A DNA stretch of 63,003 nucleotides, counting the filler, from Chrysochromulina tobinii (taxonomy: Eukaryota), in NCBI GenBank assembly GCA_001275005.1. It is 4 parts of 4 records of this genome, joined end to end, with 100 filler letters (N's around TTAATTAATTAA, not from the genome) between each part and the next. Parts side by side here need not be neighbours in the genome. Positions count along the whole stretch, not along the records: positions 1 to 22,836 come from JWZX01000815.1; 3 more parts are not named here. One strand, written 5' to 3'. Positions 1,015 to 43,481 of this stretch are shown here, in pieces. The notes under the pieces were generated by a model. The model saw only the letters and a program-made list of their open reading frames with translations, was not told the DNA's origin and searched no databases. The position numbers and the translations under genes were made by a program. The first letter of the stretch is position 1. The number at the start of each line of letters is the position of its first letter.

Positions 1015-2061
1015 CTAGCGACCAATCTGGCCGCGCAGCTCGGCAAGGGCCTCGACGCGACGCGCCTCCTCGAGCTCGGCCGCGAGATTCTCGAGCTCGG
1101 CGAGCTGCGCCGTCCGTCGCGCGGCCGCCTCGGCCGCCTCGTGCGGCGCGGCGTTCGTCACGTCCTGAGCGAGCGCCGCCACCTCGTCCGACAAGCCACC
1201 GAGCTCGCCGAGCGCCTCGGCACCGCGTAGCAGCCGCTTGGTCACCTTGTGGCGCGTGGCGGCGATACGCTCGCGCAGGTCGGTGAGCAGCGGCGCCGCG
1301 TCGCGCACGACGGCGGCGCCCACGGCGGCGCGGTGGAAGCCGGCGCGGAACAGCAGCATAAGCTTGCCACCCGAGCACAGCCCTAGCGCCTCCACGGTGC
1401 TCTCATCAGAGGCTTCCTTGCCCTTGGAGAGCAGGCGCATGCTCGTGGGCGGGGTGCCGTCGACGAGCCCGCTCGCGAGCGCCTTGAGATCGGCGACGCG
1501 GCTCGTCGGCTCACAGTGCAGCAGCAGCTGGCGCCGGCCTTGCATGACTGTGAGCGTCACGGACCCAGCGCCCGCCTCGGCCGGTGCCGCCGCGGCCGCC
1601 GATGTGGACGGTGCCGCCCCGTCGTCCGGCTTGAGCAATCGGTCGCCCGCAGTCTGCCGCTCGCTGCCGTCAAACTCGATGGTGTAGTAGGGTGCGGTCA
1701 GATCATCCATGTGCACCGCACGCACCGTGGCGTGCTCGAGCGTACCGCCCGCCGCACGGTAGAGCACCTTGGCGCCCACGACGAGCCACGAGGGGCCGGC
1801 CGAGGCTGGCGCGGGAGCGGCGGCCGCCGCCTTCTTCGCGCCGAGCTGCGAGCGCATCAGCATCACCTTGGCGCCATCGGTCAGCCCGAGTGCACCCACG
1901 GTCTCCGCATCGTCCGGCTGCTTGCCTTTGACGAGCAGCTTCATCTGGTCGGCGTCGAGCCCGGCCATGGGCTCGAGCCGCTGCTTCACCACGCGGAGCG
2001 AGTCCTCGGGCGTCACGTCCACGTCGTGCTTGCCGCCGAGGCCACTCACGTGCAGTCGCAT
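1015..2061 (-). CDS. Protein with two ubiquitin-like domains, an SH3/Tudor-like insert and a helical BAG-like C-terminus
   Basis: UBL1 MRLHVSG...MKLLVKGK...LGLTDGAKVMLM and UBL2 ...MRLLSKGK...LGLCSGGKLMLL, followed by a helical C-terminus. ATG at 2061. Confidence 0.75.
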   Translation of the reverse strand: MRLHVSGLGGKHDVDVTPEDSLRVVKQRLEPMAGLDADQMKLLVKGKQPDDAETVGALGLTDGAKVMLMRSQLGAKKAAAAAPAPASAGPSWLVVGAKVLYRAAGGTLEHATVRAVHMDDLTAPYYTIEFDGSERQTAGDRLLKPDDGAAPSTSAAAAAPAEAGAGSVTLTVMQGRRQLLLHCEPTSRVADLKALASGLVDGTPPTSMRLLSKGKEASDESTVEALGLCSGGKLMLLFRAGFHRAAVGAAVVRDAAPLLTDLRERIAATRHKVTKRLLRGAEALGELGGLSDEVAALAQDVTNAAPHEAAEAAARRTAQLAELENLAAELEEARRVEALAELRGQIGR

Positions 2062-2141
2062 TCGATTGTCGCCTCGGCGAGCCAAGATCAAGGGGCTCCC
2101 AGGCCCCTTGCCAAGACGCCGACCGAATGTGCTCGCGTTCG

Positions 2142-2276
2142 CAAGTCAAGGCAAGTCAAGTCAAATCACTTCGCAATCCGTCCCGCGACAACAGTTTATG
2201 AGTGTGTCGGAGAAGCTGCTCCCCCCCAGTCGCGTTTAGCAGGGGCGAACTTGACTTGACTTGTTTTAATTGACTT
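2142..2276. promoter_or_regulatory. Inverted (CAAGT)n/(ACTTG)n arrays in a divergent promoter
   Basis: CAAGTCAAGGCAAGTCAAGTCAA at 2142-2164 and ACTTGACTTGACTTG at 2249-2263, between head-to-head genes. Confidence 0.45.
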
Positions 2277-2376
2277 CGCGCCAAGCCGAGCCAAGACGAG
2301 CGCGCCACCGACAAAAGCGCTCGTGACCAGTATTTTGTCAGTGGTGACCGAGCGCGCCGAGTCCACCGCGGTTCCA

Positions 2377-5300
2377 ATGCAAGCAGCCGCGATAGTTGCG
2401 CCCGAGAAGAAGCGCCTGGACTCCTACGAGGGTGAGTACTGGCAGCCCATGGAAGTTGCGAAGCGCCAGCGCAAGGTGAAGACGATCCCCGACGCGATGT
2501 TGTCGAACGGCAAGGCGGGACTCTACCGCAGTGACTCTGACGCGACCGAAAATGGCGTAGAGCCGAAGTCGGCCTGGCGCAAGACCCCCACCGCCTTGAG
2601 CAAGCACACATACAGCTCCGAGCTCGAAGCGCACGCGCCCGACGACGCCCAAAAGCGCCTCGCCGAGCGCACCGACTCGATGGAGACGGTGGTCTACTCG
2701 CAGAAGAGCGCGCCGCGCGCGGTCTCCGACGAGGAGGTGGACGAGGACGAGGACGAGGAGGAGGAGGTGGTGGACAACGACGAGAACGGCCCGGCCCCGG
2801 AGGACGCCTCGCACGCGCTCTTGATGCTCGCTTTCGCCGGCGCCGCAGAGGCCTCGAGTGCCCCGCCGCCCTCGGCGGGAGATTCGGCTGGAGATCTGCC
2901 GGTGCCGATCTTTGCGAAGCGTCCGACGCCGAAGACGGGCGCGGGCGTGCTCATGGGCATGATCTCCAACCCGTGGGAGCCCGAGGAGGACGACGCCCTC
3001 AAGACAGCGATCGAGAAGCACGGCACGCGCTGGAAGAACGTGGCACGCCACGTGCTCGAGCAGACGGGCGCCGAGCGCACCGTCGCCATGTGCCGCAACC
3101 GGTACCTGCGCATCCAGGCGGGCCTGCGCCAGGCGGCGCTCAACCCGACGACCAACAACCGGTGCACCGCGTGCGGCCAGTTCAAAAAAGGGCACACGTG
3201 CCGCGGCGTCGATGCGTTCCACGCCACCTTCCTCGACAGCGCCAGGGCGGGGTCCATGCTGGGCGGCAGCAGCGGGCGCGCGCTCGCCGAGCTGCGCCGC
3301 GCCGTCGACGACCCCGAGTACGACCTCGCGAGCCTCGCCCCCCTGCGCCCGCTGCCCGAAGAGGGGCTGAGCGTCGTCCCGGGCGCCACCGACCAGAGCG
3401 CCGTCGTGAGCAGCGCGCCGGGAGGGCTGCAGTGCGTGGCCCAGAGCGCCGGCGGCCTCCTCTCGTCCCCCTCGTCCCGCTCCTCCTCCTCCTCGCCCTC
3501 GCCCACGGCGGGCGCGGCCGGCGCCGCCACCAACGCCTCCTCCTCCTCCACCTCGGCGCACCCGAGCGCCGTCCCGAGCGCCGACAACGCGCAGCACGAG
3601 GCGGCCAGCGTCATGCAGGGCATGTCCTCCATGATGCTCGCCGCGGCCGGTGCAGGTGCGCCCGCGCCCACCACGGCGCCCACCGCGGCGCCCACCGAGG
3701 GCAGCCCCCTACCCGCTGCGCTGCCCCGCCACGGAGCCGGTACCTCCCCCGGCGCGACGGCGCCCGGCTCGGCGCCCGGCATCTCGTTGAACCAGCAGCT
3801 CTACTGCCCGTGGGCGTTGAACGAGGACATGGCCCTCAAGGAGGCGATCCGCACCCACGGCACGCGCTGGGCGACCATCGCGGCACGCGTCGCCGAGCTC
3901 ACCGGCATCGAGCGCACCGTCGCCATGTGCCGCAACCGGTACCTGCGCATCCAGGCGGCCGCCCTCAAGGCCGAGAAGAACGCCGAGAAGAGCGCTGAAG
4001 GCCTCTCGCCCGGCGGCAGCCGCGCCCCCCTCACCCAGCGCGGCGCCGGCGCCCAGTACGGCGCGAGTGCCCTCCTCTCGCCCTCCGGTTCGGGCGCGGT
4101 CGGCGCCCAGCACGGCGCGGTCGGCGCCCAGAACGGCGCGGATGGCGCCCAGTACGGCGCGGGCGTGCGCTCGCCCGCCGGCAGCGGCCCGTCGCCTGCG
4201 GGACGACCTTGGGCGTCGCCATGCTCGGGCTCTGACGCATCGGGCGCGCCGGGCGCGTCGGGCGCGCCGGGCGCGTCGGGCGCGCCCGCGCCGGACGCGC
4301 CGTGCGCGCCGTGCGCCGACGAGGACTCGGACGACGCCCAGGACGACGCCCAGGACGACGCCCAGGACGGCGCCCAGGACGGCGCCCCAGGACGGCGCCG
4401 GCACGCCGCATGAGAGCTCGTCGGTCTCGACCCGCTCAGCGCCCTCGCCCAAGACGACGCCCTCGCCGCTCGCGTCGCCGCTGCCGCCGGCGATGGGCTC
4501 GGCGATGGGCACGCCCGATGAGGCGATGGCCCATCCCGGCGGCTTCCTACTCGCAGCCGCGCGGCACGAGGCGCACGTCGCCTCCCTCCGCGAGCTCCAC
4601 TCGCGCGAGCGCCGTGATGAGCGCCGGGACGAGCGCCGTGACGAGCGCGGGTCGCCGGCCGCCGGCGCCGTGTCGGGCGCTGGGAGCGTCGACGGGTCCG
4701 CCGCGCCCTACCCTTCACAGGCCGATCGCCCTTCACAGACGCGGCTGGGAATGCCGCCGCCCGTACGGGCGACCGACGCGGCCGAAGGGTCGCGGGCGAG
4801 CAAGGCGGCGCGGCAGGGGAACGTGCCCTCACCCTCATCGGTGCTCGCCCCGCTCGAGCATGCCACGCCCCTCGAGATGATTTCACACCTGGCTGCTTCA
4901 CACCTGGCCGCGCAGCATGCAATGGCCGACGCGCATGCGAGAGCAACGGGTGGCGCCGCCGCGCCCGCGAAGCGCGTGCCATCGACGACCACGCTCCCGC
5001 CGTGCCCGCTGTGCCACCGCACGTTCCTGCACAACAACTCGTCGGCGCGCAACAGCCACGTGGCCCGCTGTGCGAACGCCGCGAGCCTACCGGGCCAGAC
5101 GCCCAACGCAGCGCTTCCCGAGAACGACCCGGTCCATGCGCGCGGCGCCTTCCGGTGCGGAGAGGCCGACTGTGTGCACGTGTACGCCAACATCGACGGC
5201 CTGCGCCGGCACGCGCGCAAGACGGGGCACGCCTTCGAGCGCTTCCCGGAGCGCACCGTGAAGGCCCCCAGCCAGGAGCGCCCGGCACAGCGCCCGTTGG

Positions 5301-7442: not shown

Positions 7443-8905
7443 ATGATTGCGATGCTCATCAACTTTGTAGCGGAGAAGACCAACGCGAGTGCTATAAACT
7501 CGGTCGCCTTATCCCCGGACGGGACGAAAATTGTCTCGGGGTCGGACGACGGGACGATCAATGTCTGGGATTCGGGTGCGCTTTTGCCCTCAAATCGCCC
7601 ATCCTTGGCCACCATTGACACCTGCTGGCTTGTCTGGCAGGCGCGCTGGGGCTGTTGAGCGAGAAGACGAATGCGCATGCTTCTGGCATCATGGGCTCCA
7701 TTTCCTGCGTCCAGTTTTCCCCAGATGGATCGAAGATCGTAAGTTGCGGCATTACCGACAAGACGATCAAAGTCTGGGATTCGGGTTCGCCGCGAGCTCA
7801 AAATCGCCCCTCCTTGGCCAAAACTGACGCCTGCTGGCTTGTCTGGCTGGCAAGCTGGAGATGCTGAGCGAGAAGACGAACGCCCACAGCAGCTACGTCA
7901 TGTCGGTGGCGTTTTCCCCGGACGGGACCAAGATTGTGTCGGGATCTTACGACCAGACGATCAAAGTCTGGGATACAGGTGCGCCGCGAGCCCTCAAAAT
8001 CGCCCCTCCTTGGCCAAGACTGACGCCTGCTGGCTTGCCTGGCAGACAAACTGGAGCTACTGAGCGAGAAGACGAACGCCCACAGCGACCACATCAGGTC
8101 GGTGGCGTTTTCCCCGGACGGGACCAAGATCGTGTCGGGATCGACTGACAAGACGATCAAAGTCTGGGATACGGGTGCGCCGCCAGCTCAAAATCGCCCC
8201 TCCTTGGCCAAAACTAACGCTTGTTGGCTTGTCTGGCAGACAAACTGGAGCTGTTGAGCGAGAAGACGAACGCCCACAGCAGCAGCATCTTGTCGGTGGC
8301 GTTTTCTCCAGACGGGACCAAGATTGTGTCGGGATCGTGGGACAAGACGATCAAAGTCTGGGATTCAGGTGCGCCGGAGCCTCGAATCCCCCCTCCTTGG
8401 CCAAAACTGACGCTTGCTGGCTTGTCTGGCAGGCAAGCTGGAGATGCTGAGCGAGAAGACGGATGCGCACAGCAGCGGAATCACGTCAGTGGCCTTTTCC
8501 CCGGACGGGGCCAAGATCCTGTCGGGATCATTCGACAAGACGATCAAAGTCTGGGATTCTGGTTCGCTGTGCGAGCTCAAAATCGCCCCTCCTTGGCCAA
8601 AACTGATGCCTGCTGTGGCTTGTCTGCCAGGCGCGCTGGGGCTGCTGAGCGAGAAGACGAATGCCCACAGCCTCTGGATCCAGTCGGTCGCGTTTTCCCC
8701 GGATGGGACCAAGATTGTGTCCGGATCGCACGACAAGACGATCAAAGTCTGGGGCATGGTCAAGTGGTCTCGCAAAGATCATTTGTTGTTCAATGATACC
8801 ACCCAGCAATTCGTCTTGCTGCTGCTGTGGCTGAACAAATACAGCATGAAGTTCCCTGATGATGTGCTTGATCTACTCATCGAAGCTTGCTTGCAAAGCA
8901 AATAA
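7443..8905 (+). CDS. Seven-repeat WD40 protein, one repeat per exon; exons 7443-7575, 7641-7784, 7850-7978, 8046-8174, 8240-8368, 8433-8561, 8631-8905
   Basis: Each exon encodes AH....[22 protein letters not shown]. Six homologous 64-69 nt phase-1 introns separate them (five GT-AG, one with TG at the acceptor). Further 5' exons are possible. Confidence 0.85.
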
Positions 8906-12270: not shown

Positions 12271-13547
12271 TCAGAGCTGCCTCCCTGTAGAGACCCACGC
12301 CGGTAACGTAGGCGGCCGCTCGCGCCTCTCCTTGGCGACGAGGTACTCGAGGTCCTCCCGCTCCTCCGCCGTGACCACGAGCTCCTCCGCCTTCGCCCAC
12401 TCGCCCGTCTGCAAGTAGTACTGGAGCCACTCCTTGCGTGCAGCCTCCTCCTCCTCCTCGGAGAGCTCGGACTCGGACGCGTCGGCACCACCCAGGCTCG
12501 CGCCCGCCGCGCCCATGCCCTCGCCCGCGCCCGCCGTCTCGCGAGCTGTTCGAGGCGCATCGTGCGGCGCCACCCGATCTGCTCGATACGACGCGTTACC
12601 GATGCGAGATTGCGCCGCCGCTACCCATCCCGACCCCCGCCGAGGCTCCCCCTCGCGAGCCCCCCCCACCCCCGGATGCTCCGGGGACGAGGTCGGTACA
12701 CCTACGTGATCCGACGCTGGGCCGTAGGGCTCTCGATCGGAGTGCATGCTGCGTGCCTCTCTCCGTGCAGGCTGATGGCCTCCCTCATCAGGGCCGTGGC
12801 CGTCGGGCTCGGCGCGGCGTGGCGATGGCTTCTCCTCTGGCTGCTCGGGCTCAGCGCGGCCGCTCATCGGGTCGATCCGGGCTCCGGGCATCGGCTTACG
12901 CCGCCCGTACTCGTCGAGCACCTGAGGAGGGAGGCAAGCAGCACGCCATCAGAGATGCAACCAGCATGTGATCGGCGATGCCATCAGCATGCCATCAGAG
13001 CGCCGACCCGTCTCACCTTCAGATCTGGCTTGCGGTTGAACTCGATGTCGATCAGCCGTTCCTTGGTCATCTGGATGCGGTTGTAGTTGAGGCCGCCATA
13101 GATGACCTCAAAGACGAGGCGCTCCGGGTAAAGCACCCCGTTCAGCAACTTCTTGAGCAGCGGCGGATCCACCTTCTTGAGGCACTCGATCGACTGCTCG
13201 TAGTACGCCTTGGCCGCCTCGAACTCACCCATGCAGTGCAGGCAGAAGCCGATGTTGTGCACAAAGGTGCCGCGCGTGCCCGGGTCGGCGCACGACTTGG
13301 TCTTCTCCGACACGGCCAGCGCGTTCGTGAACAGGTTCAGCGCCTCCTCCCAGTTCTGCGCATAGCACTCCTTGCTCGCCTCCTTGAGCAGCTTCGCCTC
13401 GAGCGCCGTGAGCTCGCTCATGGCGACGTTGGCGCCAATCTGCGCGTGGTACTGCTGCACGCTGTCGAAGATCTTGGCCGACACCCGCTGAACGCCAACC
13501 TCCTCGTGCCACTCCTCGCGCGAGGAGGTTGGCGCGGCGGAGTACAT
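12271..13547 (-). CDS. TPR-containing protein; exons 13547-13017 and 12921-12271
   Basis: TPR-like helices (EEALNLFTNALAV, HNIGFCLHCMGEFEAAKAYYEQSI). A phase-0 GT-AG intron at 13016-12922 joins the two ORFs. Confidence 0.75.
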
Positions 13548-13728: not shown

Positions 13729-16700
13729 ATGGACATTACGAAGTTCTTCACCAAGAAGCCGGCCGCCGCGGCGGCGAAGCCAGCCGCGGACGGCATCGAG
13801 CCTGTTGCGGGCGCGTCGGCCAAGGTCAAGCGCAAAGCCGAAGACGACGTTGCCAGCGCCAGCGCTGGCGATGCTGCCGCCGCCGCCGAGGCCGCCGAGG
13901 TCAAGAAGAAGGCGCTGCCCAGTGCAAATGGCCACACTCCCGTACCGCCCGTGCGCCAAAAAGTCGACCCTGCATCCTTCTTCGCCATGGGCAGCAGCGC
14001 GGCCAAGCCAATGCCCTCGTCCTCTGCCAAGGTTGAGCAGTCCGCAGCGCCGCCGCCCAAGGCTCCGGTGGCGGAGCCGAAGGCAGCGCCGAGCGAGCCG
14101 GAGCGCGTGAAGCGGCATCGTGATGATGACGAGAACGCCGGCCAGGCCGACGGTGCGGCGGCGGCCAAGCGGCCCGAGCACACCACCGCAGGCACGAGCA
14201 AGCAGAAAGGGCCGTCGGATAAGCGGCCGACGCCGCCGCCCGCGCGCGCAGCCCTCGACGCATCGTCCAGCCCGGCCGGAGACGGCAGTAGCCCGATCGC
14301 GCCGCTGAGCGCCGACTTCGCGCCGCCGCCGCCGAGCAAGTGGTACCCGGGCAAGAAGGACATCGCGCCGCCCAATAAGGGCAACAAGCGGGTGCCCATG
14401 GCGGCGCCCCAGTGCCTCGCAGGCCTCACGTTCGTGATCACGGGTACGATTGCCTCTGATGGCCTCTGATGGCCTCTGATGGCCTCTGATGGCCTCTGAG
14501 TGTGCCCTTCTTGAATGGCATGCTGATTGCCTCTAATGGCCTCTCTCCTCCTCAGGCACGTTGGACTCTCTCGAGCGTGAGGAAGCCGCCGCTCTCATTG
14601 AGCGCTTAGGTGGGCGCGTGACAGGCTCGGTGAGCAGCTACCTGCCTACGATTGCCTCTGATTGCCTCTGATTGCCTCTGATTGCCTCTGATTTCCTCTG
14701 ACGACAGGCTCGGTGGGCAGCCACCTGCTCCTGATTGCCTAGGATTGCCTAGGATTGCCTAGGATTGCCTCTGATGACAGGCTCGGTCAGCAGCAAGACG
14801 AGCTACCTGCCCCGTGGCTGCGACGAGCATGGCTCTGAGTGCATGCTAATGGCCTCCCTCATCAGTGACGAGCATGGCTCTGAGTGCATGCTAATGGCCT
14901 CCCTCATCAGTGACGAGCATGGCTCTGAGTGCATGCTAATGGCCTCCCTCATCAGGTGAGCAGCAAGACGAACTACCTGCTCCGTGGCTGTGACGAGAAT
15001 GGCCAACCAATGGAGTCGAGTAAAGTGACCAAGGCGCGCGAGCAAAAGGGATGCAAGGTGAGCGACGAGGAGGGCCTCTGATAACCTCTCTGAGTGCATG
15101 CTGATTGCCTCCCTCATTAGGTTAGCGACGAGGAGGGCCTCTGATAACCTCTCTGAGTGCATGCTGATTGCCTCCCTCATCAGGCCCGCCTCTCTGAGTG
15201 CCTCTTTGAGTGCATGCTGATTGGCTCCCTTATCAGGTGATCGATGAGGATGAGCTCTTCGACATCCTTCGCAAGACGGCGCCGCAGCCGCCAGAGTCCC
15301 CTGAGCCCGTGGAGGAGGAGGAGGAGGCGGAGGAGGTCGCGGCGCCACCTGCCGAGGTGCCGAGGCCCATGGGTGTGAACATGGGTGTGAAGCGCGAGGG
15401 CGGCGCCCTCTCCTCCACCTCCACCTCCACGGGCTCGGCGGCCGGTGCAGGCAGCAGAAGCGGCGCCGGCGCCGGCGCAAGCTCGAGCGCAAGCAGCAGC
15501 AAGGCGCCGGGAGGGCCAGTGCCCGCGCGCATGCCTCGCGAAGCCACGGGCGATGAAGCACCGCCCCTCTGGGCCGAAAAGTATCGGCCAACGGCCAAGA
15601 CGCACCTTGTGGGGAATGCCGATCAGGCGAGGCGACCCGCTGGCCTCTCTGATGGCATGCTGATTGGCTCGCTCATCAGGCGAAGCTATCTGCTGGCCTC
15701 TCTGAGGGCATGCTGATTGGCTCGCTCATCAGGCGAAGCTACCTGCTGGCCTCTCTAATGGCATGCTGATGGCCTCCCTCATCAGGCGAAGCTATCTGCT
15801 GGCCTCTCTGATGGCATGCTGATGGCCTCCCTCATCAGGCGAAGCTACCTGCTGGCCTCTCTGAGGGCATGCTGATGGCCTCCCTCATCAGGTGAAGCGA
15901 CTCGAAGCGTGGCTGGGCTCATGGCACCGTGAGAACGCAGCGCTCGAGGCGGCGGCGGCGGCGAGGGAGAAGGCGCCCAAGGGGCAAGCGGCATCGACCT
16001 TCCACAAGGCCGCCCTCCTCTCAGGTGACCCCGCCCTGCATGCAAGTGCCCACCACGGCGCCGTTGGGCGTGTGCGTACGCTCACCACGGCGCTCACCCT
16101 CTTCCCCACAGGCCCCCCCGGGGTGGGCAAGACCTCAACGGCAAAGGTGCTCCTCCAGGCGCTCAACTACGACGTGGTCGAGCTCAACGCGTCCGACACG
16201 CGCTCGCAGAAGCAGCTGCAGGCCTTCGCCGGCGACATGGTGGGCAACACGTCGATTGCGGACTTTGCCGACGGCAAGGTGGGAGGCCAGCAGAGGAAGC
16301 TCGCCCTCATCATGTGGCTGCTCACCCTGATGACCTCTGATTGCCTCCCTCATCAGGTGGGAGGCAAGCAAAGGAAGCTCGCCCTCATCATGGACGAGTG
16401 CGATGGCATGAGCGCGGGCGACCGCGGCGGCATGATGGCGCTCCTTGGCGTCATCAAGGCCTCGAAGATGCCCATCATCTGCATCTGCAACGATCGGCAG
16501 TCTGCAAAGGTCAACACCCTCGATCTGATGACCTTTGATGACATCTGATGACCTCTGATGACCTCTGATGACCTCTGATGACCTCTGATGACCGCTGATG
16601 ACCTCATCAGGTCAAATCTCTCGCCAATCACGCTCTCGATCTGCGCTTCCGCCGCCCGGCGGCACTCGAAATCAAGGCCGCGCTCCGTCGCGTCGTCGCG

Positions 16701-18360
16701 AACGAAGGGTACAAGCTCGGCGAGGAGACGCTCGATGACCTCTGATGACCTCTGATGACGTCTGATTGCCTCCTTCATCAGGTACAAGCTCGGCGAGGAG
16801 ACGCTCGATAAGATCGCTGAGGCATGCAATGCGGTGAGTCTCTCTGATGGCCTCTGATGGCCTCTGATGGCCTCTGATGACCTCTGATGGCCTCTGATGG
16901 CCTCTGATGACCTCTGACTGCACTCGAAAAGATCGCTGAGGCATGCAAAGCGGTGGGTCCTGTTTTCGATCGATTGGGTTCTCCTGTGGGTCCAGCATGC
17001 AAGCGCTCAACACGGCGCCCGTGCCCCCTCTCCCCACACAGGACATTCGTCAGATGCTCAATCTCCTCCAGATCTGGCGCCCGGCGGCCGGCGCGCCCGG
17101 CGCGGGCATGTCGGCGGGCGACGTGACGAAGAACATGCAGAGCGCCTTCAAGGATGTCGACGTCGGCCCTTTCGACGTCGCCGACAAGTTCTTCCGCGAG
17201 CCGAATGCGGACTTCGACCGACGGCTGCGCCACTATTTCGTGGATACCTCGATGACGCCACTGCTCGTGTACGAGAACTACCTGTCCGTCTCGCCGCCGC
17301 CGCCGCCCGGCCTGCCGCCCGCACAGCTGCAGGCCTGGCTGCTGCACCGCGCGACGCTCGCCTCGGATTTCATTGCATGCTCGGATGTGGTCGGTGCTCG
17401 CATTCTGAAAGAGCAGCAGTGGGGCCTCGCGCCGCTGCACGGCGCGCTCTCGTGCTTGGCGCCCGGCTACATGATGCAGGGCAACCTCGGCCGCCTCCAA
17501 TTCCCACAGTGGCTCGGAAGGAACTCGACCGGTAACTCGAAGCGCCAACGGACCCTTCGCGCGCTCGGCGCATGCAAGTTGTGCTCACCACGGCGCCGGA
17601 CGCCCTCCCCACAGGTACGAAGCGCCAACGGCTCCTTCGCGAGCTGACAGGCCACCTGTCCGCGCACGTCTCGGGCTCGAAGGAAGAGGTGGGCTGATGC
17701 CGTTGATTGCCGCTGATTGCCTTTGATTGCCTTTGATTGCACGTCTCGGGCTCGAAGGAAGAGGTGGGCTGAGTGCTTTTGCGGGCCACTGATTGCCTTT
17801 GATTGCCTCTGATGCACTCTGATGGCTGAGCGCTCTTGAGTGCCGCTGATTACCGTTGATTGCCATTGATTGCCATGGATTGATGTGCACTGCAGGTGCG
17901 CAATAGCTACGTGCCCGCACTGCGCCCGCGGCTGCTGCGCCCGCTCGCCGAGCGCGGTACCGACGGTGTGGAAGAGGTGCTCGAGTCTCTGGATGCGTAT
18001 GGGATCACCAAGGACGACTTCGACACGATCTTCGAGCTTGAGCTCTTGGTGGGGGGGGCGGCGAAGCCGGCGCTCGCGCAGATCCCCACAGCCGCCAAGT
18101 CCGCCTTGACGCGCAAGTATAACCAGTCGCACCAGCAGTTTGAGAAGAAGAAGGGGGGGGGCGGCGCTGGCGGCGCTGGCGGTCTGATGCGTTTCACCGA
18201 CGATGGCGTCGAGGATGAAGCGGTGGAGGATGAGGGCGGCGACGCCGAAGAGGGCGGCGAGGAGGGCGACGAGGACGAGGACGTGAAGCCGGTGGCCGCC
18301 AAAAAGGGCGCCGCCTCGGCGGCCTCTGCCAAAGGCAAAGGCAAGGCCAAGGCCAAGTGA
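13729..18360 (+). CDS. RFC1: Replication factor C subunit 1; 12 exons, introns 14444-14555, 14630-14955, 15058-15236, 15627-15891 (GC donor), 16025-16111, 16279-16356, 16510-16610, 16709-16781, 16834-17041, 17532-17614, 17689-17895
   Basis: BRCT (CLAGLTFVITGTLDSLER), WAEKYRP, Walker A GPPGVGKT, ELNASDTRS, LIMDECDGM, ICICNDR, DIRQ and C-terminal FPQWLG. The frame is restored by the listed introns. Confidence 0.95.
14444..17895 (+). repeat. Cluster of repeat-built introns ((CTGATGRCCT)n ... CTCCCTCATCAG) containing duplicated exon fragments
   Basis: Decamer arrays and exon copies are visible in most RFC1 introns. Confidence 0.85.
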
Positions 18361-20575: not shown

Positions 20576-21643
20576 ATGGGCTGCGCGCAATCGCAGATGG
20601 CAGGCGCCGACAGCGGCATGAAGGTAGTCAACGTCGACAAGGTGAAGAGCGGCTCCAAGATGCTGCCCCGTGGCGGAGCAGGAAGTGCTCGTTACAAGCT
20701 TCGGCGGTGCAACTGCTGCTCGTTCTCGTACTTTGCGCTTTGCAAAACCTGCCCTCGGTGCAACGACGCGGCTCCTGTCGTCCGCAAGCCGATTGTCGGA
20801 GGCAACTGGAAGTGCAACCCGTCGAAGGTGTCTGAGCTCAAGGAGCTCGTGGCCAACATCGACGCCTGTGACACCTCTGGGTGCGACGTGTACGTTTGCC
20901 CGTCCACGTTGCACATCGGCATCGTGTACAAGAGCTTCAAGAACGGTGCGAAAGTGGCGCCCCAGAACTGCAACTACAAGGGATGTGGCGCTTACACGGG
21001 AGAAATGTCGGCCGATCAGATGGTCGACATGGGCCTGGAGTGGTGTCTGATCGGCCATTCGGAGCGGCGTGGAGAGTTTGGCCTCCCCACGCCGCCCGAG
21101 TCGAACTCGCTGCTGGCCATGAAGTGCAAGTACTTGCTCGAGAAGGGCATGAAAGTCATCTTCGCCATCGGCGAGCCCCTTCCGGTGCGCGAGAAGGGTC
21201 TGAAGGCTGTGATGGAGACGCTCATCCCGCAGCTCCTCGAGATCAAGGGCATGCTGGATCCTGCGCGTGTGGTGCTCGCGTACGAGCCCGTGTGGAGTAT
21301 CGGCACCGGCGTGACTGCCTCGCCCGCCCAGGCCCAGGAGACGCACCGAGCGATTCGGCAATGGATCGCAAAGGAAGTCTCGCCATCAGTGGCGGCCGAG
21401 ATCCGTATCCAGTACGGCGGCTCCGCGAACGCCAAGAATGCGCCCGACCTCTCCAAGTGCCCCGACGTCGACGGCTTCCTCGTGGGCGGAGCCTCCCTCA
21501 AGCCCGAGATCGCCGAGATCGTCGCCGCCGTCGCCAAGGAGAAGTGCTGGCGTGACTTGGGGAACGCGGACCTCTTTCCTGCGGCCGTGTACGAGAAGAG
21601 CGGCCTGAGGAAGACGGGAGCAGTCACGTGGGTAAAGGCCTGA
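20576..21643 (+). CDS. TPI: Triosephosphate isomerase with N-terminal MGC acylation motif and Cys-rich zinc-ribbon-like extension
   Basis: Motifs GGNWKCN, IGHSERR, AYEPVWSIGTG, YGGS and DGFLVGGASLK. Confidence 0.95.
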   Translation: MGCAQSQMAGADSGMKVVNVDKVKSGSKMLPRGGAGSARYKLRRCNCCSFSYFALCKTCPRCNDAAPVVRKPIVGGNWKCNPSKVSELKELVANIDACDTSGCDVYVCPSTLHIGIVYKSFKNGAKVAPQNCNYKGCGAYTGEMSADQMVDMGLEWCLIGHSERRGEFGLPTPPESNSLLAMKCKYLLEKGMKVIFAIGEPLPVREKGLKAVMETLIPQLLEIKGMLDPARVVLAYEPVWSIGTGVTASPAQAQETHRAIRQWIAKEVSPSVAAEIRIQYGGSANAKNAPDLSKCPDVDGFLVGGASLKPEIAEIVAAVAKEKCWRDLGNADLFPAAVYEKSGLRKTGAVTWVKA

Positions 21644-22516
21644 CGGAATGCTGACGAGTCGAGCTTGGCGATAGCAGAGACTGCGAGCTCGAGCCGTGAT
21701 GCCGCCGGTGCCGATGAGACACGTGGCGATGGGGGCGCCTCGTGCTCGCTGCTCTGATTGCATGCTGATGGCATGTTGATTGCATGCTGACGTCCTCACA
21801 TGGCGGAAGGCATGAGCATGAGGGAGAGGCGGCCGATGCGAGCCGCGCGACCGTCGACGCGAAAATCAAGCTGGTCAGATGGGGGGAAAGAAGGAGGAGA
21901 GGAGAGCAGCAGGTGCGAGAGATTGCGAGAGATTCACATGCTCATGTCTTCGCATGTGCAGCATGTCAAGATCGGTCATCATGCGTCATCGCGAGATGAA
22001 AATGTATTAACGAACGGAAAAGGTCGCACGCCCCGTGCGGGTGCGCAGGGGCGATCATATTTTAATCATATTTTTTATCATCCTCCCGTAGCCGTAGCCC
22101 GTACACACACGGACACGCCCGCAAAATCGAAAATGACAATGTCATGCGCGTGTACGCGGTCGGGGGCCGGCCGGCCAGTTGCGCCTCCTTTGCAGTAACT
22201 GTTCGGTTCTCGCGGGGGCCGCGGTACAGCGTAACTATAACGCCCGCCCTGCTGGCGAATATTGGCATGGCTCTCGGCTCCATCCGTCATATCAATCGAA
22301 CCTCGCCGGCGTGTCCGCACTGCCCCCCCACTGCCCGGCCTGAGCCTTGAGTGTATGCTCGAGCTGGGCACGCCATTCACAGCTGGAAAGTGTGCGGACC
22401 ACTGCAACTTGGCCGGTGACCGTACAAGTCCGAGGGGGTTGCGAAGGTAGCCGACAGCCGCGCTGCACTAGCCAGCTGCACGAGGTGCGGCTCGATCACT
22501 CAACCAGGCGAACGGG

Positions 22517-22836: not shown

Positions 22837-22936
22837 NNNNNNNNNNNNNNNNNNNNNNNNNNNNNNNNNNNNNNNNNNNNTTAATTAATTAANNNNNNNN
22901 NNNNNNNNNNNNNNNNNNNNNNNNNNNNNNNNNNNN
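22837..22936. other. Artificial contig spacer (N run with TTAATTAATTAA)
   Basis: 100-nt N block containing a six-frame stop linker. Confidence 0.97.
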
Positions 22937-23201: not shown

Positions 23202-26200
23202 ATGAGTGCGCCCGACTACAGTCTCATCGGCGAGGGCTCCACGCCGTATATTGCCTACGAGGAGCCGGTCGTGCCGCCGCCTCGGCGGCCGCCGCCTCCC
23301 TCGTGCTGGCGTGCGTGCTGGCGCGCGCTGTGTGGCTGCTGCGGCCAGCGCGCGCCCGAGTGGCGCACCATCTTTCTCAACGCAAGCCCGCCGACGCACG
23401 GCTGGTACCCGCACAACCGCGTCGAGAACACCAAGTACGGTCTGCTCTCGTTCGTGCCGAAGGTGCTCCTCGAACAGTTCCGCTACTTTTTCAACTTGTA
23501 CTTTCTGCTGGTGGCGCTCTCGCAGTTCGTGCCGGTCTTCGAAATTGGGCTCCGCTTCACGTACATCGCGCCGCTCGTCTTCGTGCTCGCAGTCACCATG
23601 GCCAAGGAGGGCTACGACGACGTGCAGCGCTGGCGCACCGACACGCTGATCAACAATGAGGCGTACGAGCGACTGCAACCAGGCGGCGGCTCAATGGCCG
23701 TGCCGGCCAAGGACTTGCGTGTGGGCGATGTGGTACGCGTGAGCACTAACCAGCGCATCCCGGCCGACCTCGTGCTGCTGCGCACCTCGAGCGAGAGTGG
23801 GGTCGTCTTTGTGCGCACCGACCAGCTCGACGGTGAGACCGATTGGAAGCTGCGCGTGGCCGTGGCGTCCACCCAGCGACTGGCATCGGAGGCGGCGCTC
23901 TCGGCGGCGGTGGTCACTCTGCATGCGGCGCCGCCCACCAAGGACATCTACGAGTTCGTGGGCGACCTCACCCTATACGACGACGCGCTCGAGGGCGGGT
24001 GCGTGCAGGAGCCCCTCGCGCTCGAGAACACCCTCTGGGCCAACACGGTCCTCGCCTCGTGCGCGTGTCATGGCGTGGTCGTCCACACCGGACGCGAGAC
24101 CCGCTCGTCGATGAACGTGGCAGGCGCGCCGCCGAGCAAGATGGCGACTCTCGACCTGCAGGTGAACTTCATGACCAAGCTCCTTTTCGTGCTGGTCAAC
24201 CTGTCGGCCCTGCTCATGGTCGCGGTCCCGTTTGGGCAGGTGATGACCACTGATGACCTCTGATGACCCCTGATTGCCTCCGTTTGGCCTCTAATTGAGG
24301 TCCCGTTTGGGCATGTTTGGTCCCGTTTGGGCAGGCCTCGGCAGCGGCGTGGCGGGATGGGCAGAGCTCGGAGGGATGGTGGGACGGCGGCTGGGAGAAC
24401 TCCGCACGCAAGCTCTCGGATCGGCTCTCGGAGAGCCTCTCGCGCCTGGTGCAGGCGCTCCTCGACTATGTGTGCTTCATGCTCCTCTTCTCGCAAATCA
24501 TCCCGATCTCGTTGCGAGTGGCTCTGGACATGGCGAAGCTCGTGTACAAGCTCCAGATGACCTCGGACGAGCGGCTGCCGGGGCTGCAGGTGCGTCGCCG
24601 CTGATGGCCTCCCTCATTGCATGCAGGTGCGACTGGACAGCCCTTGACGGCCGCTGATGGCCACTGATGGCCACTGATGGCCTCCCTCATGGCATGCAGG
24701 TGCTCTCGTCGACGCTGCCTGAGGAGCTTGGCGGCATCGAGTACCTGCTCACGGACAAGACCGGCACCCTCACGCGAAACGAGATGACCTTCCGAAAGCT
24801 GCATCTGGGCGCTGCGTGTCTGGACGAGGCGATGGTGCCGGAGCTGCGCGCCAACCTCGCACAAGTGCTCCGTGAACAGCCTCTCGCCTCCCTCGCTCCG
24901 CCCGTGCCCGAGGCCCTCGGAGTGCCGCGGAGTGCCTCGGACCCCCTCGGAGTGCCGCGCTCGGCGTGCGGCGCACCGCTTCGGCAGAGCTCGCTGACAA
25001 GCAGGCTCACGGCGGGGGGGCGAGTCGGGAGCTTGTTGGTACAGCCGCCAGCGGCGCCGTCCCGCCGCTCGGCGGCGCCGCCCGACAGTTCGCTGACGAC
25101 TCCGCTGCTCTCGGCCGAAGACGCGACGGACGGCGACGGCAGCTCGTCGATGACCTTGTTCGCACGTCCAAGTGCCGCGCACAGTGCCACGCGCGAGGCG
25201 AGTGTGCCTCGCATCGAGAGCAGGACGAGCCGCACCCCGGGCAGCGGCGCCCACCACGGCGCCATCCCATCACAGCGGGCGCGTGGCGCGTGGCGGGGAT
25301 TGCGGCGGGCGGGCGGCGCCGACGAGGGAGGCAGAGACGAGGGAGGCAGAGACGAGGGAGGCAGAGACGAGGGAGGCAGTGGCGAGGAGGGCGGCAGCAG
25401 CGCCGAGGGCGGCGGCGAGGGCGACGGCGAGGGCGAGAGGATTGCTTTCGTGCAAGCCCTCCTCGCGATTGCGCTCTGTCACAACGTCTCTCCGGTGGGC
25501 GACACCTTCGACGAGGGCAGTACCGGCTGGGCACGCGAGGGCAGCGCGGAGCCGCCGCGAAAGCGCTGGGGATCGCGTGACGAGGGCGAGCACGACGCCG
25601 AACGGGGCGGCGGCGCGGGCGTCTTGCCGGGCGACTTTCAAGGGGCGTCGCCCGATGAGCTTGCGCTCGTGCGCTTTGCGGCGCGTTGCGGCCTTGTGCT
25701 CGTAGGGCGCACGTCGTCGCTGGTGACGCTGCAGGAGCCGTCGGGCCAACTGCGCGTGTACGAGGTGCTCCACGAGAAGCTCTCATGACCTCTGATGACC
25801 ACTGATGTCCACTGATGACCACTGATTGCCTCCCTCATCAGGTGCTCCACGAGATGCCGTTCACCTCCGAGTCGAAGCGGATGGGCATCTTGCTCCGGCA
25901 CGTGCCCTCGGGAGATCTCCTCTTCTATGTCAAGGGGGCGGACGCCGTCATGTCGGAGCGCGTCGTCGGCGCCGACTGGCTGGAGGAGGAGACCGGTAAC
26001 ATCCGAGTGCATCCGAGTGCTTCTGAGTGTGCAGCTGAGTGCATCCGAGTGCATCCGAGTGCATACGAGTGCTTCTGAGTGCGCATCTGGCCGACTGGCT
26101 CCATCAGGAGACGGGTAGCCTCGTACCAAGGGGCACCTCGGAGTGCCTCTGAATGCGACTGATCCGTCGCGGCGTGTGATTGCAGGTAACCTCGCACGCG

Positions 26201-28802: not shown

Positions 28803-31800
28803 ATGGCGGAGTCGCCGTCGAGCTGGTGGACGCGCGTCGAGGGCCTCTTCGGACGCTCGCCCGACTCGGGTCTCCCCGACAAGCCAGTCTTGCGCGGCGG
28901 CGGCGGGCGCGTGGGCAACGGCTCCGATGCGGCCCTCCTTCAAGCGTGCACCGTGGGCAGCAAGGAGGGTGTCGAGCAGCTCCTGCTCGAGGGCGCCAGC
29001 CCCAACCACCGCGGCGAATTCGGCGCCACGCCGCTCACCATCGCGGCGGAGTTGGGTTCCGCCGCCATCGTGGCGCTGCTGCTGGCCGCCGGCGCTGAGG
29101 TCGACACGATTGACGACAATGGCGACAGCGCGCTGCTGTGTGCGTGCCGCGTGGGCCAAGTCGACGCGGTGCGCATGCTCCTGAACGCCAAGGCCGACCC
29201 CGCGCTCACCAACTCGCAGCAGAAGAATGCGCTCGATGCGGCCATCGAGGCGCGCAACTATTACAACCGTCCGGAGGTGTCCGAGCTGCTGCTGGCGCAC
29301 CAACGCGACGACGCCGATGTGGACACGGACGCGGGCGCCGAGGGCACTGACGAGGCGAGCGACTCGGCGCCCAAGCCGGGCGCGCCCGCGACCGCCGGCC
29401 ACCTGTCGAGCCACGCGGCGCGCGGCCGGCCGACGGACGCGCTCGAGCATGTGCTGCGCCACGGGAGCGGCGCGAGCCATCGGAGCCATCGCACTGCCAG
29501 CCCTGTGGCGCCCGTGCTGCGCCTGCGCAAGGAAGAGTGGGCCCTCGACCGCAACTACCCGCAGTGCCACCTGTGCAAGGCGACCTTCACTCTCATCAAC
29601 CGGCGCCACCACTGCCGCATCTGCGCCCTGATCTTTTGCGAAGCGTGCACGGCCAACACCGTGGCCACGGCGGGCGCGCGCACGGTGCGCACTGCCACCG
29701 GAAGCACCCGCGGGGGCCTCCGACCTGCCCGCACCACCGCCCGTGTCCAGCTCCGTGGCCACGGCGACCCCCGACCCTTGCGCGCGCGCACCACCATGCG
29801 CGTTGCCGCCCCGCTCGCCTCTCCCTTCTCGCGCGCCCCTGTCAGCCCTCCCCACTCGCCCTATCCTCCGCCTGCCCTGTCCTCCCGCCTGCCCTGTCCC
29901 CGCCCATGTTAGGCAGCCCATGTTTGGCAGTCCATGTTAGGCAGTCCCCGCGGCGTCGTCCCTATACCCCTGTGGCCACCCCTCTGAACCCCGATGACGA
30001 CTCTCGCGCCACTGATGACCACTGATGACCACTGATGACCACTGATGACGACTCTCGCGCCACTGCTACAGGAGGACGGGCAGCCGATCGCGCCCGACTC
30101 GGCGCCCGTACGCGTGCGCGTGTGCAACGCGTGCTGGGCCTTGCACGCCGACGCTACCGGCGTCGCCTCGACCGCCGCGGCGGCCGGTGGACCAACGGAG
30201 ACGCGCGAGGTGCACGGCTCGCTCTTTGCCGATCGGATGCGCCGCAACGGGTACGCAACGCTCGCGCACCTCGCGACCGCCGTCTCGCTCGCGCGTGCCG
30301 CCACCTTCGAGGTCGCCCAAGGGGCTGGGGTCGCCTCTACGAAGGCCCCCTCGCCCTCCCCTTCGCCCTCCAAGCCACGCGCCTCGACCCACGCCCACGC
30401 GACTCGGCTCGACCCGGCCAAGTCGCTCACGGCGCCGCGGCTGGGCACGCTGTCGGCGCAACTTGGCGAGCCCAGCACGGCGCCTCAAGTGGCTTCATTG
30501 GACGCGGAGCTCGTGTCCCAAATTAGGGACGCGGAGCTCGTGGACTCGACGAGGGCGATGAGCACCGCGACGGACGTACTCTCCGAGCACGACGATAGGC
30601 CTGAGGCGAAGCCGCTGCCCGCCGCTGACTCGGCGCAGACGCGCGCCCCACTCGTGGCGATGCTTGGCGACAGGGACGCCGCCGACGCCGGCGCACGCGG
30701 CGGGAGCGAGGGCGGCGGCGGCGGCGGCGAGGGCGGCGGCGGCATCGGCGCGATGGTCCGCGCAAGCGTCCCTAATTTGGCAGGCGTCTCTAATTTGGGC
30801 TCTGATGCGGATCTCGATCATCTCGAAGGGGTTGCGGACCAATCCCAGCTAGGCGACCTCGCCGGCGACCCTACCTCCAAGTTCCCGAAGCACAGGCGCT
30901 CGCCTTCTGTGCCGTCGGCGGCAGAGCGCACGACTGAGCGCGACACCGACGCCTCCGATGGAAAGCCGAGCGCGCCGGGCGGCGGCAAGAAGGAACGTGG
31001 CGTGATCCTCGCGGCGCCACTGGTGCCGCCGCCGGTGGTGCAACCCGACCCACAGGTACGTTGATTGCCACTGATGACCTGCCTTGCATGCAAGTGCTCA
31101 CCACAGCGCGCCTCGCCATCATTCCACAACCCGACCCACAGGGCGATGCGCCGAGCGTGGTGGACGAGCACCGCGCCCGCCTCGGTGCGTGGAGGGACAT
31201 GCGGCTGCGCCATGCGATCTGGAGCCAGCTCTCGCTCAGCCCCGAGCTGCCCACGCAGTGGCAGGGGACCCTGGAGGTGCTTGCGACGCGCGCGGCTGAC
31301 TCACTCCGACCGGTGCGATGGGCCCTGATGACCATTGATTGCCCTTGAGTACCAGTGAGGCCCTGCCTCCGACCCGAACCAGGCGCTCAACTCGTCCATC
31401 AACGCCATCCTCAAGATCAAGACGCTGCCGGGCGGCTCGCGAGCGCACTCGCACTACGTCGACGGGCTCGTGTGTCGGCTCAAGCTCGCGCACAAGTGCA
31501 TGCGCACCGAGCTCGCCTGGCCGCGCATCCTGCTGCTCAAGCCGTCGCTCGAGCATGATTTAGGACCGGGCGTGACGAGCCTCGAGGCCAACATGCGCCA
31601 GGAGGATGAGCACATGGAGATGGTGGTGCACGAGATGGCCAAGCTGCGCGTCGATTTACTCCTCGTCGGGGGGTCCGTCTGCTTCACTGCCAAAGAGAAG
31701 CTACTCAAGCGTGGCATCGCGCTCGCGGTCGGAGTCAAGCCGCAGGTGCTCGAGCGCATCTCGCGCTGTACCAACACGACTGTCCTCCTCTCGCCCGCCC

Positions 31801-41358: not shown

Positions 41359-41458
41359 NNNNNNNNNNNNNNNNNNNNNNNNNNNNNNNNNNNNNNNNNN
41401 NNTTAATTAATTAANNNNNNNNNNNNNNNNNNNNNNNNNNNNNNNNNNNNNNNNNNNN
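41359..41458. other. Artificial contig spacer
   Basis: 100-nt N block with TTAATTAATTAA. Confidence 0.97.
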
Positions 41459-42480
41459 CAACATGCTCGGCGCGCTGCCGACTCGCTGGCGAGCAAGGGG
41501 CGACGGAAAGTGCTGCGCGCCCAACCCCAGCACTGTCGTGCAGACGACGAGGCAGCGGTGGATAGCACAGACCAGGCACGCAAGGTATTCAACGGCTTGT
41601 TCTGGACGGCCTTTTTCTTCCTGATCACGCATCGGCTAGCGGGTTTGCTGTGGTTCATGTGGCCGGCTTGGCGCTGCAACAGTTGCACAGTGTCTGACCC
41701 TGCGTTGGTGAACGGTATGAGCCCGGAGCCATTGATCCCTACGGGCGTCTTGGCGGTCGGGCAGAATGCTGGTCATCAAGTGCTGGTGAAAGTCCTTTGT
41801 GGTTGGCGTGGAACCACCGGTCATTTTGAATGGCAGCAGGCACGACGAGCCACGAGCCGTATTCGCTGGGTCCAACGCGAACAAACTCAACCGGCTTGGA
41901 GCTGCATTCAGCTGCATCGTGTCTGATTCTGCGTTGTGGTCGGCATGCGTACGGCTCCATTGAAGCTTTGCGAGCATCTGGACGCCGAGCTGCATGCCGG
42001 CCATCACTGCGGGTGAAAGTCTTATGCGGTTGGTGTGGAACCACCCGGTCGTCTGAATGGCAGCAGGCACGACAGCCACAAGCCGTATACGCTGGGTCCA
42101 ATGCGAACAAACTCCTGAGGCCTACTTGCCTGGCACTGGCTGCGGCCCTATATCATACGGAGATTGCATACCGGTAGCCCTAATGACGAAACCCTCTGGT
42201 TGCCTAATAAAGAGATGACGAAACCCTGCGAGGTCAGTGACGAAACTTCGACGAACCTTTTCCCGCACTTTCAGTGTCAGACACTCCAGTGTGACCCTTC
42301 GACTCTCAAACCTCGGCCCGGGGGGGTCTCGGATTTTGGTCCAAATACTTTGGTTGACCTCGGAGGTCAGCTTCGAACCTTGGACCAAGGGGGGTGTTTT
42401 CCCGGAAACGATACTGAATTTCCTGGACTCGCTTCAGACCCGACCCGACCCGACCCGACCTCGACCTCGGAGCCCGATTT

Positions 42481-42828
42481 TCATATCCTATCCCCCGACC
42501 CGACCCCCTCCGACCCGACCCCATACTGGAGAGTGGCGACGCGCCGTGTTGGGCGCTTTTCATATCGGATCACTACAGGTTCACGTATGTGGACTATCAG
42601 GGTAACGGATTTCCTCCTGCGTATGCTGCACCTATTGGAGTCACCACCCGTACGTGGATCATCTATCATGATTATTGGTGGAGGTCGACGCGTGGTCAGT
42701 TTCCACGGACGCCTGCGCATTTGCCAAAGGCCCCAAAACAACCACTCTTTGAAGACGTAAAAAGCCGATAATGTGAGCTCAAGTGGCGCATATCGTTTTT
42801 TTGGGTACACACTCGCGCCCGCGCCCAT
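42481..42828 (-). CDS. Orphan ORF (MGAGAS start) directly downstream of the conserved leader element
   Basis: The ATG sits at the same position relative to the repeated element as the ATG at 43349. Confidence 0.3.
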   Translation of the reverse strand: MGAGASVYPKKRYAPLELTLSAFYVFKEWLFWGLWQMRRRPWKLTTRRPPPIIMIDDPRTGGDSNRCSIRRRKSVTLIVHIREPVVIRYEKRPTRRVATLQYGVGSEGVGSGDRI

Positions 42829-42920
42829 GTGGTTTCACAGTAAGTTCAGAAATTACCGGTGTGGCGCGCCGTGTTGGGCGCTTTTGATGACACGCCGTGT
42901 TGGGTGCAACACCCACTCCA

Positions 42921-43349
42921 TCACCCGAAGGGTTGAAATGCAACTCGTTGCCCCCGCTGCGTGCGTAAATATCGTTTACGTTCTGAAACAGTCCAACCCC
43001 TGACCTCCATTGTCAATAAGCGCATCTTCAACACGTTTGGATAAAACCTCCAACTTAGTACATCATTCATCACATACCACATCATTGTTTCCAACTTAAT
43101 GAGTTTTGTCCTAATGTACTTTGCAAAAAGTTCTGTGAGTTTCCACAAACGCTTTTGAGGTAGAGTTTCTACTCTTAACCAGTCACGAAATACCACGGAA
43201 TACCCTGAATCTATGACTCTTCGGCGTTCGGCTATCTCGGGTTGTCGCGTGCGCACTCCCATGGCCAATCTCTGAAATCGATCTCGGACACGAGCCTCGC
43301 GCAGCACCTTTCGAGCACTGCCCCCCCATGACGGTGTCGTTGGCAGCAT
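42921..43349 (-). CDS. Orphan basic protein
   Basis: About 142-codon open frame in AT-richer DNA, with the ATG adjacent to the conserved element. Confidence 0.4.
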   Translation of the reverse strand: MLPTTPSWGGSARKVLREARVRDRFQRLAMGVRTRQPEIAERRRVIDSGYSVVFRDWLRVETLPQKRLWKLTELFAKYIRTKLIKLETMMWYVMNDVLSWRFYPNVLKMRLLTMEVRGWTVSERKRYLRTQRGQRVAFQPFG

Positions 43350-43481
43350 GCTTTTCACAGCTAACTCAGAAATTACCGGAGTGACGCGCCGTGTTGGGCG
43401 CTTTTCGATCTCGGTAGCCCTCGAAATCACGCCTTCCTTAATTGGTACCGGACACTACAAGTTTCCAAACTGGTATCGTCG

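Follow-up and report, generated by a model that had tools for sequence, protein, structure and literature searches.

The origin of new introns is an old question, and outside the introners their source sequence is usually unknown. Introners, as surveyed in Micromonas, Aureococcus and a Chrysochromulina sp., are similar to one another from end to end, and the survey describing them removed families with a high content of short repeats (PMC9860276), so that introns of the design discussed here would likely have been dropped from it. In Drosophila, direct repeats of ~8–18 bases overlap the splice sites of 7 of 307 novel introns (PMC2809761), the same paper cites intron gain by break repair in Daphnia, and Hellsten et al. 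describe an intron that arose from tandem or segmental duplication (PMC3265369). For haptophytes, intron gain and loss is presented as an open question (PMC8379373). Here, we analyze a 63,003-nucleotide stretch of the genome of the haptophyte Chrysochromulina tobinii (the window), in which five genes, namely RFC1, a TPR gene, a flippase gene, PIKfyve and VPS13, carry introns composed of a duplicate of the adjacent exon and a filler of decamer repeats and splice signals.

As far as the accessible text of these papers allows a comparison, the design works like intron gain based on duplication or repair, with the addition of a reusable splice-signal filler that is absent from the known cases. New positions and direct repeats overlapping splice sites are shared with the break-repair gains of Daphnia and Drosophila; here, however, the copies reach 28–59 bases and are found in 18 of 22 introns, and whereas the filler of those introns has no known source, that of the window belongs to a shared family of splice-signal repeats. 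As in the case of Hellsten et al. (PMC3265369), a duplicated exon segment provides a splice site without altering the mRNA, but here the duplicate is not long enough to form an intron by itself, and a putative branch point and the other splice site come from filler that is not local. We found no account of this design in a literature search that reached neither subscription papers nor supplements, and it is not described in the accessible portions of PMC4580454, PMC12480563, PMC8379373 and bioRxiv 10.1101/2024.05.26.595999.

The introns of the window are real and are spliced. We modelled 22 of them, with lengths of 70–387 bases, in RFC1 (11), the TPR gene (1), the flippase gene (4), PIKfyve (3) and VPS13 (3). 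An earlier note on this DNA had counted about 20 introns of one design in these five genes, which agrees well with the 20 that contain decamer-type repeats and the 18 that contain an exon copy. Removal of its 11 introns from RFC1 (12 exons, 13729–18360, plus strand), which was assigned by its Pfam RFC1 match and by homologues, leaves an open frame of 970 amino acids in agreement with the haptophyte homologues. RNA contigs support 12 of the 22 introns, eight of these by a joint offset only: one contig spans 15621–17042 in 609 bases, as modelled, compared to 1421 bases in the genome (RFC1 introns 4–9), and two contigs cover RFC1 introns 10 and 11 with an offset of 76, again as modelled. The TPR intron (12922–13016, minus strand) is missing from the RNA contigs of X12 and X13, and 24590–24699, 25996–26185 and 31313–31382 are likewise spliced out. 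A check on RNA junctions therefore bears out these 12, while frame continuity is the sole basis for the other 10, including the three of VPS13, a gene left out of the RNA contig comparison. The mRNA is restored exactly, as seen in RNA for the 12 introns and in the open frames. The neighboring ZnT (980 amino acids), TPI (355 amino acids) and TOP3A (1083 amino acids) are each encoded in a single frame, confirming that large intronless genes lie next to the intron-bearing ones.

That most of these introns hold a copy of the adjacent exon, as the earlier note proposed, is borne out against controls. When aligned locally to the 100 bases that surround the junction, 12 of the 22 introns outperform every control window (up to 1000 per intron), and the boundary-anchored identity, from which the splice dinucleotides are omitted, is 151 compared to 82 ± 5.7, with none of 20000 permutations reaching the observed value. 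Eighteen introns pass one or the other test (local p 0.001, or anchored identity of at least 7/10), and four pass neither (RFC1 intron 5, the TPR intron, flippase intron 2 and PIKfyve intron 3). The copies are ~9 to 59 bases long, and the anatomy is that of duplicate, filler and duplicate in two designs. In the first, the intron opens with a copy of the downstream exon that provides the donor, and the filler provides the acceptor, as in RFC1 intron 8, where 28 of 28 bases are identical. In the second, the donor comes from the filler and the AG from a copy of the upstream exon, as in flippase intron 1 and PIKfyve intron 2. All 22 introns were placed between two G bases (G|G). In RFC1 intron 8, one suggestive overlap of three bases may reflect break-end bases in register with the repeat. 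Duplication at the intron edges is continuing, and strains differ in one duplication that spans an exon edge.

The filler is equally distinctive. The decamer CTGATGRCCT occurs 34 times on the plus strand of the window and not at all on the minus strand, with a chance expectation of 0.25; 60 of the 64 copies of the relaxed core CTGATKRCC lie inside modelled introns, and 20 of the 22 introns hold at least two decamer cores. CTGAT fits the branch consensus and may act as branch point; in 8 of the 22 introns, 17 bases separate the last branch-like motif from the intron end. The filler also includes an acceptor module of 35–45 bases. Its stereotyped ending had been overstated, since the exact ending CTGATTGCCTCCCTCATCAG closes just 2 of the 22 introns, but a looser form of the claim stands, as the last 13 bases of this ending are matched with at most two mismatches in nine. 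A second module family (module II), GCATGCAAG...CCACAG, is found in four introns.

Filler pieces of variable length, with at most 20 identical terminal bases and from two module families, are common to unlinked genes. Because this filler consists of several units and not of one short template, copying from other introns explains it more simply; of the mechanism originally suggested, the duplication plus repeat filler stands, and the iterative synthesis on a short template, in the manner of telomerase or target-primed reverse transcription, appears unlikely. In DNA run X1, 6,550 contigs fall on 6.5 kb and are heaped on the repeats, which indicates that templates are abundant; the figure is not a copy number, and contig-based depth was not used as one. 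The decamer and acceptor patterns have no matches in the viral contig and genome contig collections, and the module II pattern matches in them one chimeric-looking contig (L012) and two bacterial sequences, so that no parent element was found there; one of the bacterial matches (L013) was judged on inspection to be due to chance. L012, a contig of the viral collection with a phage-like primase/helicase frame, is probably a chimera, with a haptophyte-like end tract at 1740–2060 that has decamers, duplicated flanks and module II. Repeats of 10–11 bases are also present within coding exons of the flippase gene (24918–24974), PIKfyve (34291–34334) and VPS13 (59364–59409), as well as after the TPI stop codon (21754–21790).

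The likeness to introners lies in the many new introns of related sequence, in which one splice site comes from the target duplication (PMC9860276). Unlike introners, however, the introns of the window have no end-to-end similarity: none of the 231 intron pairs reaches 80% identity (the best value, 0.78, is driven by repeats). There are no terminal inverted repeats in any of the 22 introns (the best terminal 10-mer complement is 4–7/10), and the duplications are variable in length and well above 3–9 bases. Although some published introner families lack short target duplications and terminal inverted repeats alike, by the tests run here this does not appear to be an introner family, in line with the difference from introners that had been claimed.

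These tests also bear on a possibility that we consider very unlikely, namely that the modules are tiny non-autonomous DNA transposons mobilized by an enzyme that leaves target duplications of variable length, a Replitron (HUH) transposase for instance. Insertions of Replitron-1 follow RG and have a single orientation, their ends being fuzzy and their duplications of variable length, and C. tobinii is reported to have one Replitron locus (PMC10288648); the upstream exon ends in AG or GG in 15 of our 22 introns, but in CG in the other 7. Furthermore, the window introns, unlike Replitrons and other HUH elements, have no defined termini: there is no fixed 5' end, the longest prefix common across genes being 9 bases, and neither the terminal-repeat search nor the pairwise comparison revealed an element. 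RNA folding found no common structure and no consistent hairpin, with one of the six folded introns beating its shuffles (z –2.2), and PMC10288648, in its accessible portion, calls the insertion signature possibly non-canonical.

Eleven loci were retrieved for a comparison of intron positions. The genomic locus L008 shares none of the 11 RFC1 positions and has one intron of its own near the start; L009 covers six positions and shares none, with its own two introns elsewhere; and L010 covers two and again shares none, with six introns elsewhere. Proteins encoded on contigs of 13–428 kb are unbroken through all 11 of the RFC1 positions (P0015), nine of them (P0056) or two (P0031), and P0089, whose cluster representative is 86% identical, is unbroken through the position of the TPR intron; this reading assumes unspliced gene calls, an assumption suggested by the read-through and frameshifts within the set. 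L005 and L006 show no interruption at the positions they cover but are transcript-like, and neither they nor L007 were counted as intron-free. In the tree, from which the frameshifted P0024 was left out, L010, which is rich in introns, and P0040/L008, which has few, form sister lineages (100/98). As the 11 RFC1 positions are unshared with the haptophyte RFC1 genes examined, these introns have the appearance of lineage-specific gains rather than old introns, and independent gains are the simplest reading; in having new, lineage-specific positions, the window introns again resemble introners. In L008, we note, the first RFC1 exon is present twice, ~2.2 kb apart, around unrelated sequence (1400–3660).

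One insert shows what may happen to a module that lands the other way around. A 72-nucleotide insert in the TPR coding exon (12720–12791, plus strand) lies antisense to the gene and in frame, and comprises a 13-nucleotide duplicate and an acceptor module up to CATCAG; the duplicate is identical in 12 of 13 bases, at a control rate of 0.002. The insert is retained in RNA contigs as 24 codons of the TPR protein, and nine aligned TPR homologues are shorter at this point by about 21–27 amino acids or more, the closest by ~27 residues. As it starts with GG, it cannot be read as a canonical intron of the opposite strand; ZnT ends 700 bases before it. The statement that the repeats always lie on the transcribed strand fails at this insert, and TPR is the only one of the five genes on the minus strand. 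An antisense, in-frame module with a flanking duplicate implies that the strand bias probably comes from selection, and suggests that modules can be inserted with duplication in either orientation.

Taking these observations into account, our preferred reading, to which we assign a probability of roughly one half, is that tracts of splice signals from other introns are copied into short duplications during break repair or template switching, and that selection keeps those inserts that are spliced. The nascent 3' end would leave at a short microhomology, copy decamers together with an acceptor or a donor from one of many similar introns, and rejoin 10–60 bases back, at a G|G site. Inserts would land in either orientation, with selection retaining the cleanly spliced or in-frame ones; every new intron would be a further template, such that no transposase would be needed for the family to spread, and the unit number (from 1 to 5) would change by unequal exchange between the direct repeats. 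Template switching of this kind would account for both designs, the variable filler, the two module families, the antisense insert and the later duplications.

Several points weigh against this reading. Four of the 22 introns have no detectable exon copy, and in no case was a parent intron found whose match to a child intron extends over the whole filler. The loci retrieved include no genomic RFC1 from a close sister, and the antisense evidence consists of one insert in a poorly conserved region, which moreover stops exactly at the acceptor AG, whereas a free switch of DNA template needs no such end. The strains add further points. RFC1 introns 9–11 are present in the window and in the wild strains L001 and L002 (L001 covers intron 9 partly), so that no presence/absence polymorphism was seen for these introns and no birth was caught. 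The 75-base duplication that carries the exon copy of RFC1 intron 11 is absent from L001 and L002, where the intron itself is present; the copies are therefore not always birth scars, and by this comparison the exon copy in intron 11 is best described as a later tandem duplication within an existing intron. RFC1 intron 9 looks like decamers and an exon copy that were probably placed before an older module II intron.

Observations of this type lend themselves to another explanation, that the introns were born earlier by a different route (as introners or by simple duplication), that the decamers are a minisatellite which spread later, and that the exon copies are neutral tandem duplications. 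The strain data show such secondary growth for intron 11 and agree with it for intron 9, repeat numbers differ among strains (that of RFC1 intron 9 is different in L002), and an introner with 4-bp duplications has been published for a Chrysochromulina sp. (PMC9860276). However, RFC1 introns 6 and 8 and flippase intron 3 start with the copy and hold no trace of an older donor, such that secondary growth would need a duplication and an exact deletion in each case; the antisense insert sits where the coding strand had no intron; and, with positions unshared among haptophytes, a route of birth would still be required. We thus regard secondary growth as a possible but doubtful account of the introns as a whole.

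The exact end of the antisense insert raises a different alternative, the one put forward in the earlier note. In target-primed reverse transcription, the product has the geometry of a duplicate, an insert with a variable 5' end, a fixed end, and a duplicate. An RNA-templated enzyme could write the filler at a staggered break, be it a retroelement reverse transcriptase primed on intron RNA with a terminal AG or, where the filler is TTAGGG, telomerase, and the introns with a fixed AG end fit this geometry. In the one case available, the exact stop of an unselected insert at CATCAG would favor a template with a fixed end. Conversely, the 3' end of the filler is not fixed in introns whose acceptor comes from the exon, and the several units (GATGRCCTCT, GAGTGCATCC and module II) would require several templates. 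No match was found in the window by Rfam, or by Pfam in the 8 frames scanned out of 25 listed for the gene-poor 41400–44400, in which no reverse transcriptase-like domain was seen either; this agrees with the earlier statement that no responsible enzyme is visible. We consider this route unlikely.

Its telomerase variant draws on a second haptophyte. L010 and L011, which by their sequence belong to one species, have introns in which exon copies accompany telomere-type repeats (L010:77–263, 703–825 and 1014–1107; L011:1–141), a pattern that we take to resemble that of Phaeocystis. In one of these introns, the donor is followed by a TTAGGG-like tract, then by 42 bases copied from the unbroken junction, a CCCTAA tract and the acceptor. 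In both loci, the G-rich strand is found at donors and the C-rich strand at acceptors, where CCCTAAC contains the branch consensus. Compared with controls, exon copies are clear in three of the six L010 introns, weak in one and not supported in two. The repeats of L009 are 11 bases long and related in their core, and neither of its introns has a significant exon copy (an apparent decayed copy in intron 1 gives p 0.28–0.88). Decamer-scale repeats concentrated in haptophyte introns are also familiar from Emiliania huxleyi, in which Read et al. in 2013 reportedly gave 10–11 bp intronic tandem repeats as a repeat statistic; we know of no link drawn there to exon copies or intron birth.

The haptophyte telomere repeat made by telomerase is TTAGGG (PMC3622300), interstitial TTAGGG is pervasive in the intron-rich coccolithophore Calcidiscus (PMC13518057), and for mammals it has been argued that telomerase inserts repeats at breaks, sometimes with duplication (PMC2246262). 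The L010/L011 introns, with tracts of both polarities, resemble these interstitial systems, as do the window introns in having short repeats with duplications; in the accessible portions of PMC2246262 and PMC13518057, however, the tracts are not linked to intron creation. In contrast to telomerase-made insertions, the window filler is not the telomere repeat: exact CCCTAACCCTAA was not found in the window, and its two one-mismatch matches both lie outside modelled introns. Arrays of the telomere type could, moreover, also be copied at the DNA level.

The remaining explanation, that the duplications are assembly artefacts at repeats, has been largely refuted, and we give it almost no weight. 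The assembly is a short-read draft with gaps, and probable one-base errors at 33906 and ~61835 interrupt the PIKfyve and VPS13 frames (the base at 33906 is missing from an RNA contig of X13). However, L003 and L004, probably the same strain as the window, match 15,795 window bases with two and zero mismatches, respectively, DNA unitigs of X1 read through several exon copies, and the wild strains L001 and L002 retain the copies of RFC1 introns 9 and 10. The copies have diverged from their exons, and RNA skips them exactly. Having been checked in these ways, the duplications can be taken as real.

We turn now to the individual introns, which are on the plus strand except for that of TPR. RFC1 intron 1 (14444–14555), placed from the frame only, holds a decayed start of the downstream exon (anchored identity 7/10), decamers and an acceptor. 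Intron 2 (14630–14955), placed without a direct RNA joint, has several exon copies, one of 59 nucleotides crossing the junction (14775–14833), with decamers and a 45-nucleotide acceptor unit present three times. In intron 3 (15058–15236), at the 3' end of which an RNA piece starts, a 63-nucleotide unit of exon start and acceptor module occurs twice and is followed by a third acceptor, and intron 4 (15627–15891, GC-AG) has five 53-nucleotide units that each close in CATCAG. The joint RNA offsets cover this intron and all subsequent ones in the gene. Intron 5 (16025–16111) has module II and neither decamers nor a significant exon copy. Intron 6 (16279–16356) consists of a 36-nucleotide copy of the downstream exon, a decamer and the exact stereotyped acceptor, with its terminal 20 nucleotides at the 3' end identical to those of flippase intron 3. 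Intron 7 (16510–16610) has a decayed exon start and eight decamers; intron 8 (16709–16781) has its perfect 28-nucleotide downstream-exon copy, decamers and an acceptor. Intron 9 (16834–17041) runs from decamers through a 31-nucleotide copy of the upstream exon (16923–16953) to a module II tail, intron 10 (17532–17614; common to L001 and L002) joins a 28-nucleotide downstream-exon copy to module II, and intron 11 (17689–17895) comprises a decamer-like tract and the 75-nucleotide duplication holding the exon copy (17739–17766).

The TPR intron contains degenerate decamers and an acceptor, with no significant exon copy. Among the flippase introns, the first (24240–24334, from the frame) takes its donor from decamers and its acceptor from a 16-nucleotide copy of the upstream exon; the second (24590–24699, RNA joint in X12 and X13) has decamers and a doubled acceptor; the third (25765–25841, from the frame) has a 13-nucleotide exon copy, decamers and the exact acceptor; and the fourth (25996–26185, RNA joint in X13) has GAGTGCATCC decamers and a junction copy. 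The donor of PIKfyve intron 1 (29685–30071) was placed from the frame only; intron 2 (31056–31141, from the frame) has decamers, module II and a 15-nucleotide upstream-exon copy as acceptor, and intron 3 (31313–31382) has an RNA joint in X11, X12 and X14. The VPS13 introns, all from the frame only, have an 11-nucleotide exon start, five decamers and an acceptor (57414–57485), a decamer donor with an upstream-exon copy as acceptor (60579–60725), and a unit of exon copy, decamers and acceptor present three times (61005–61266). The unit of copy plus module is thus repeated 2–5 times in RFC1 introns 2, 3 and 4 and in VPS13 intron 3. Several near-identical internal acceptors, mostly followed by GT or GC, are found at 15627–15891, 14822–14955 and 61005–61266. 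In RFC1 intron 4, the RNA offset marks the last acceptor as the end point. Recursive splicing of the multi-unit introns is conceivable from their sequence.

Elsewhere in the window, a WD40 gene (7500–8753) has about five 194-base units of exon plus intron, each with a different, paralogous intron. TPI (20576–21643) is extended at its N terminus, with a stretch rich in cysteine and a start (MGC) that may be myristoylated; the protein shares a 90% cluster with one of Chrysochromulina parva, which places the window in the C. tobinii/parva group of haptophytes. The stretch 41460–44400 is gene-poor and of lower GC content, with a recurring ACGCGCCGTGTTGGGCGC-like motif. L003 and L004 continue at least 4.7 kb beyond the gap at 22837–22936, with genes outside the window, which means either that more sequence is missing than the drawn gap shows or that the scaffold is joined differently.

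In a broader proposal, which we hold to be rather improbable, haptophytes would share a transposon-free intron factory, in which a polymerase working from an RNA template fills staggered breaks with splice signals. In the lineage of L010, this could be telomerase itself, with TTAGGG serving as donor on one strand and CTAAC as branch point on the other, and in Chrysochromulina a reverse transcriptase copying intron ends; if so, each lineage would be gaining its own introns continuously. Irrespective of the mechanism, the source of new introns appears here to be both visible and common, as an exon duplicate plus a reusable splice-signal repeat makes up most introns of the intron-bearing genes examined, a class dropped as low complexity by the main introner survey. 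The design also explains the trouble of gene calling and short-read assembly in these algae, and with a cultured alga, its wild strains and a second haptophyte at hand, the break-repair, RNA-templated and telomerase models of intron gain are testable from existing genomes.

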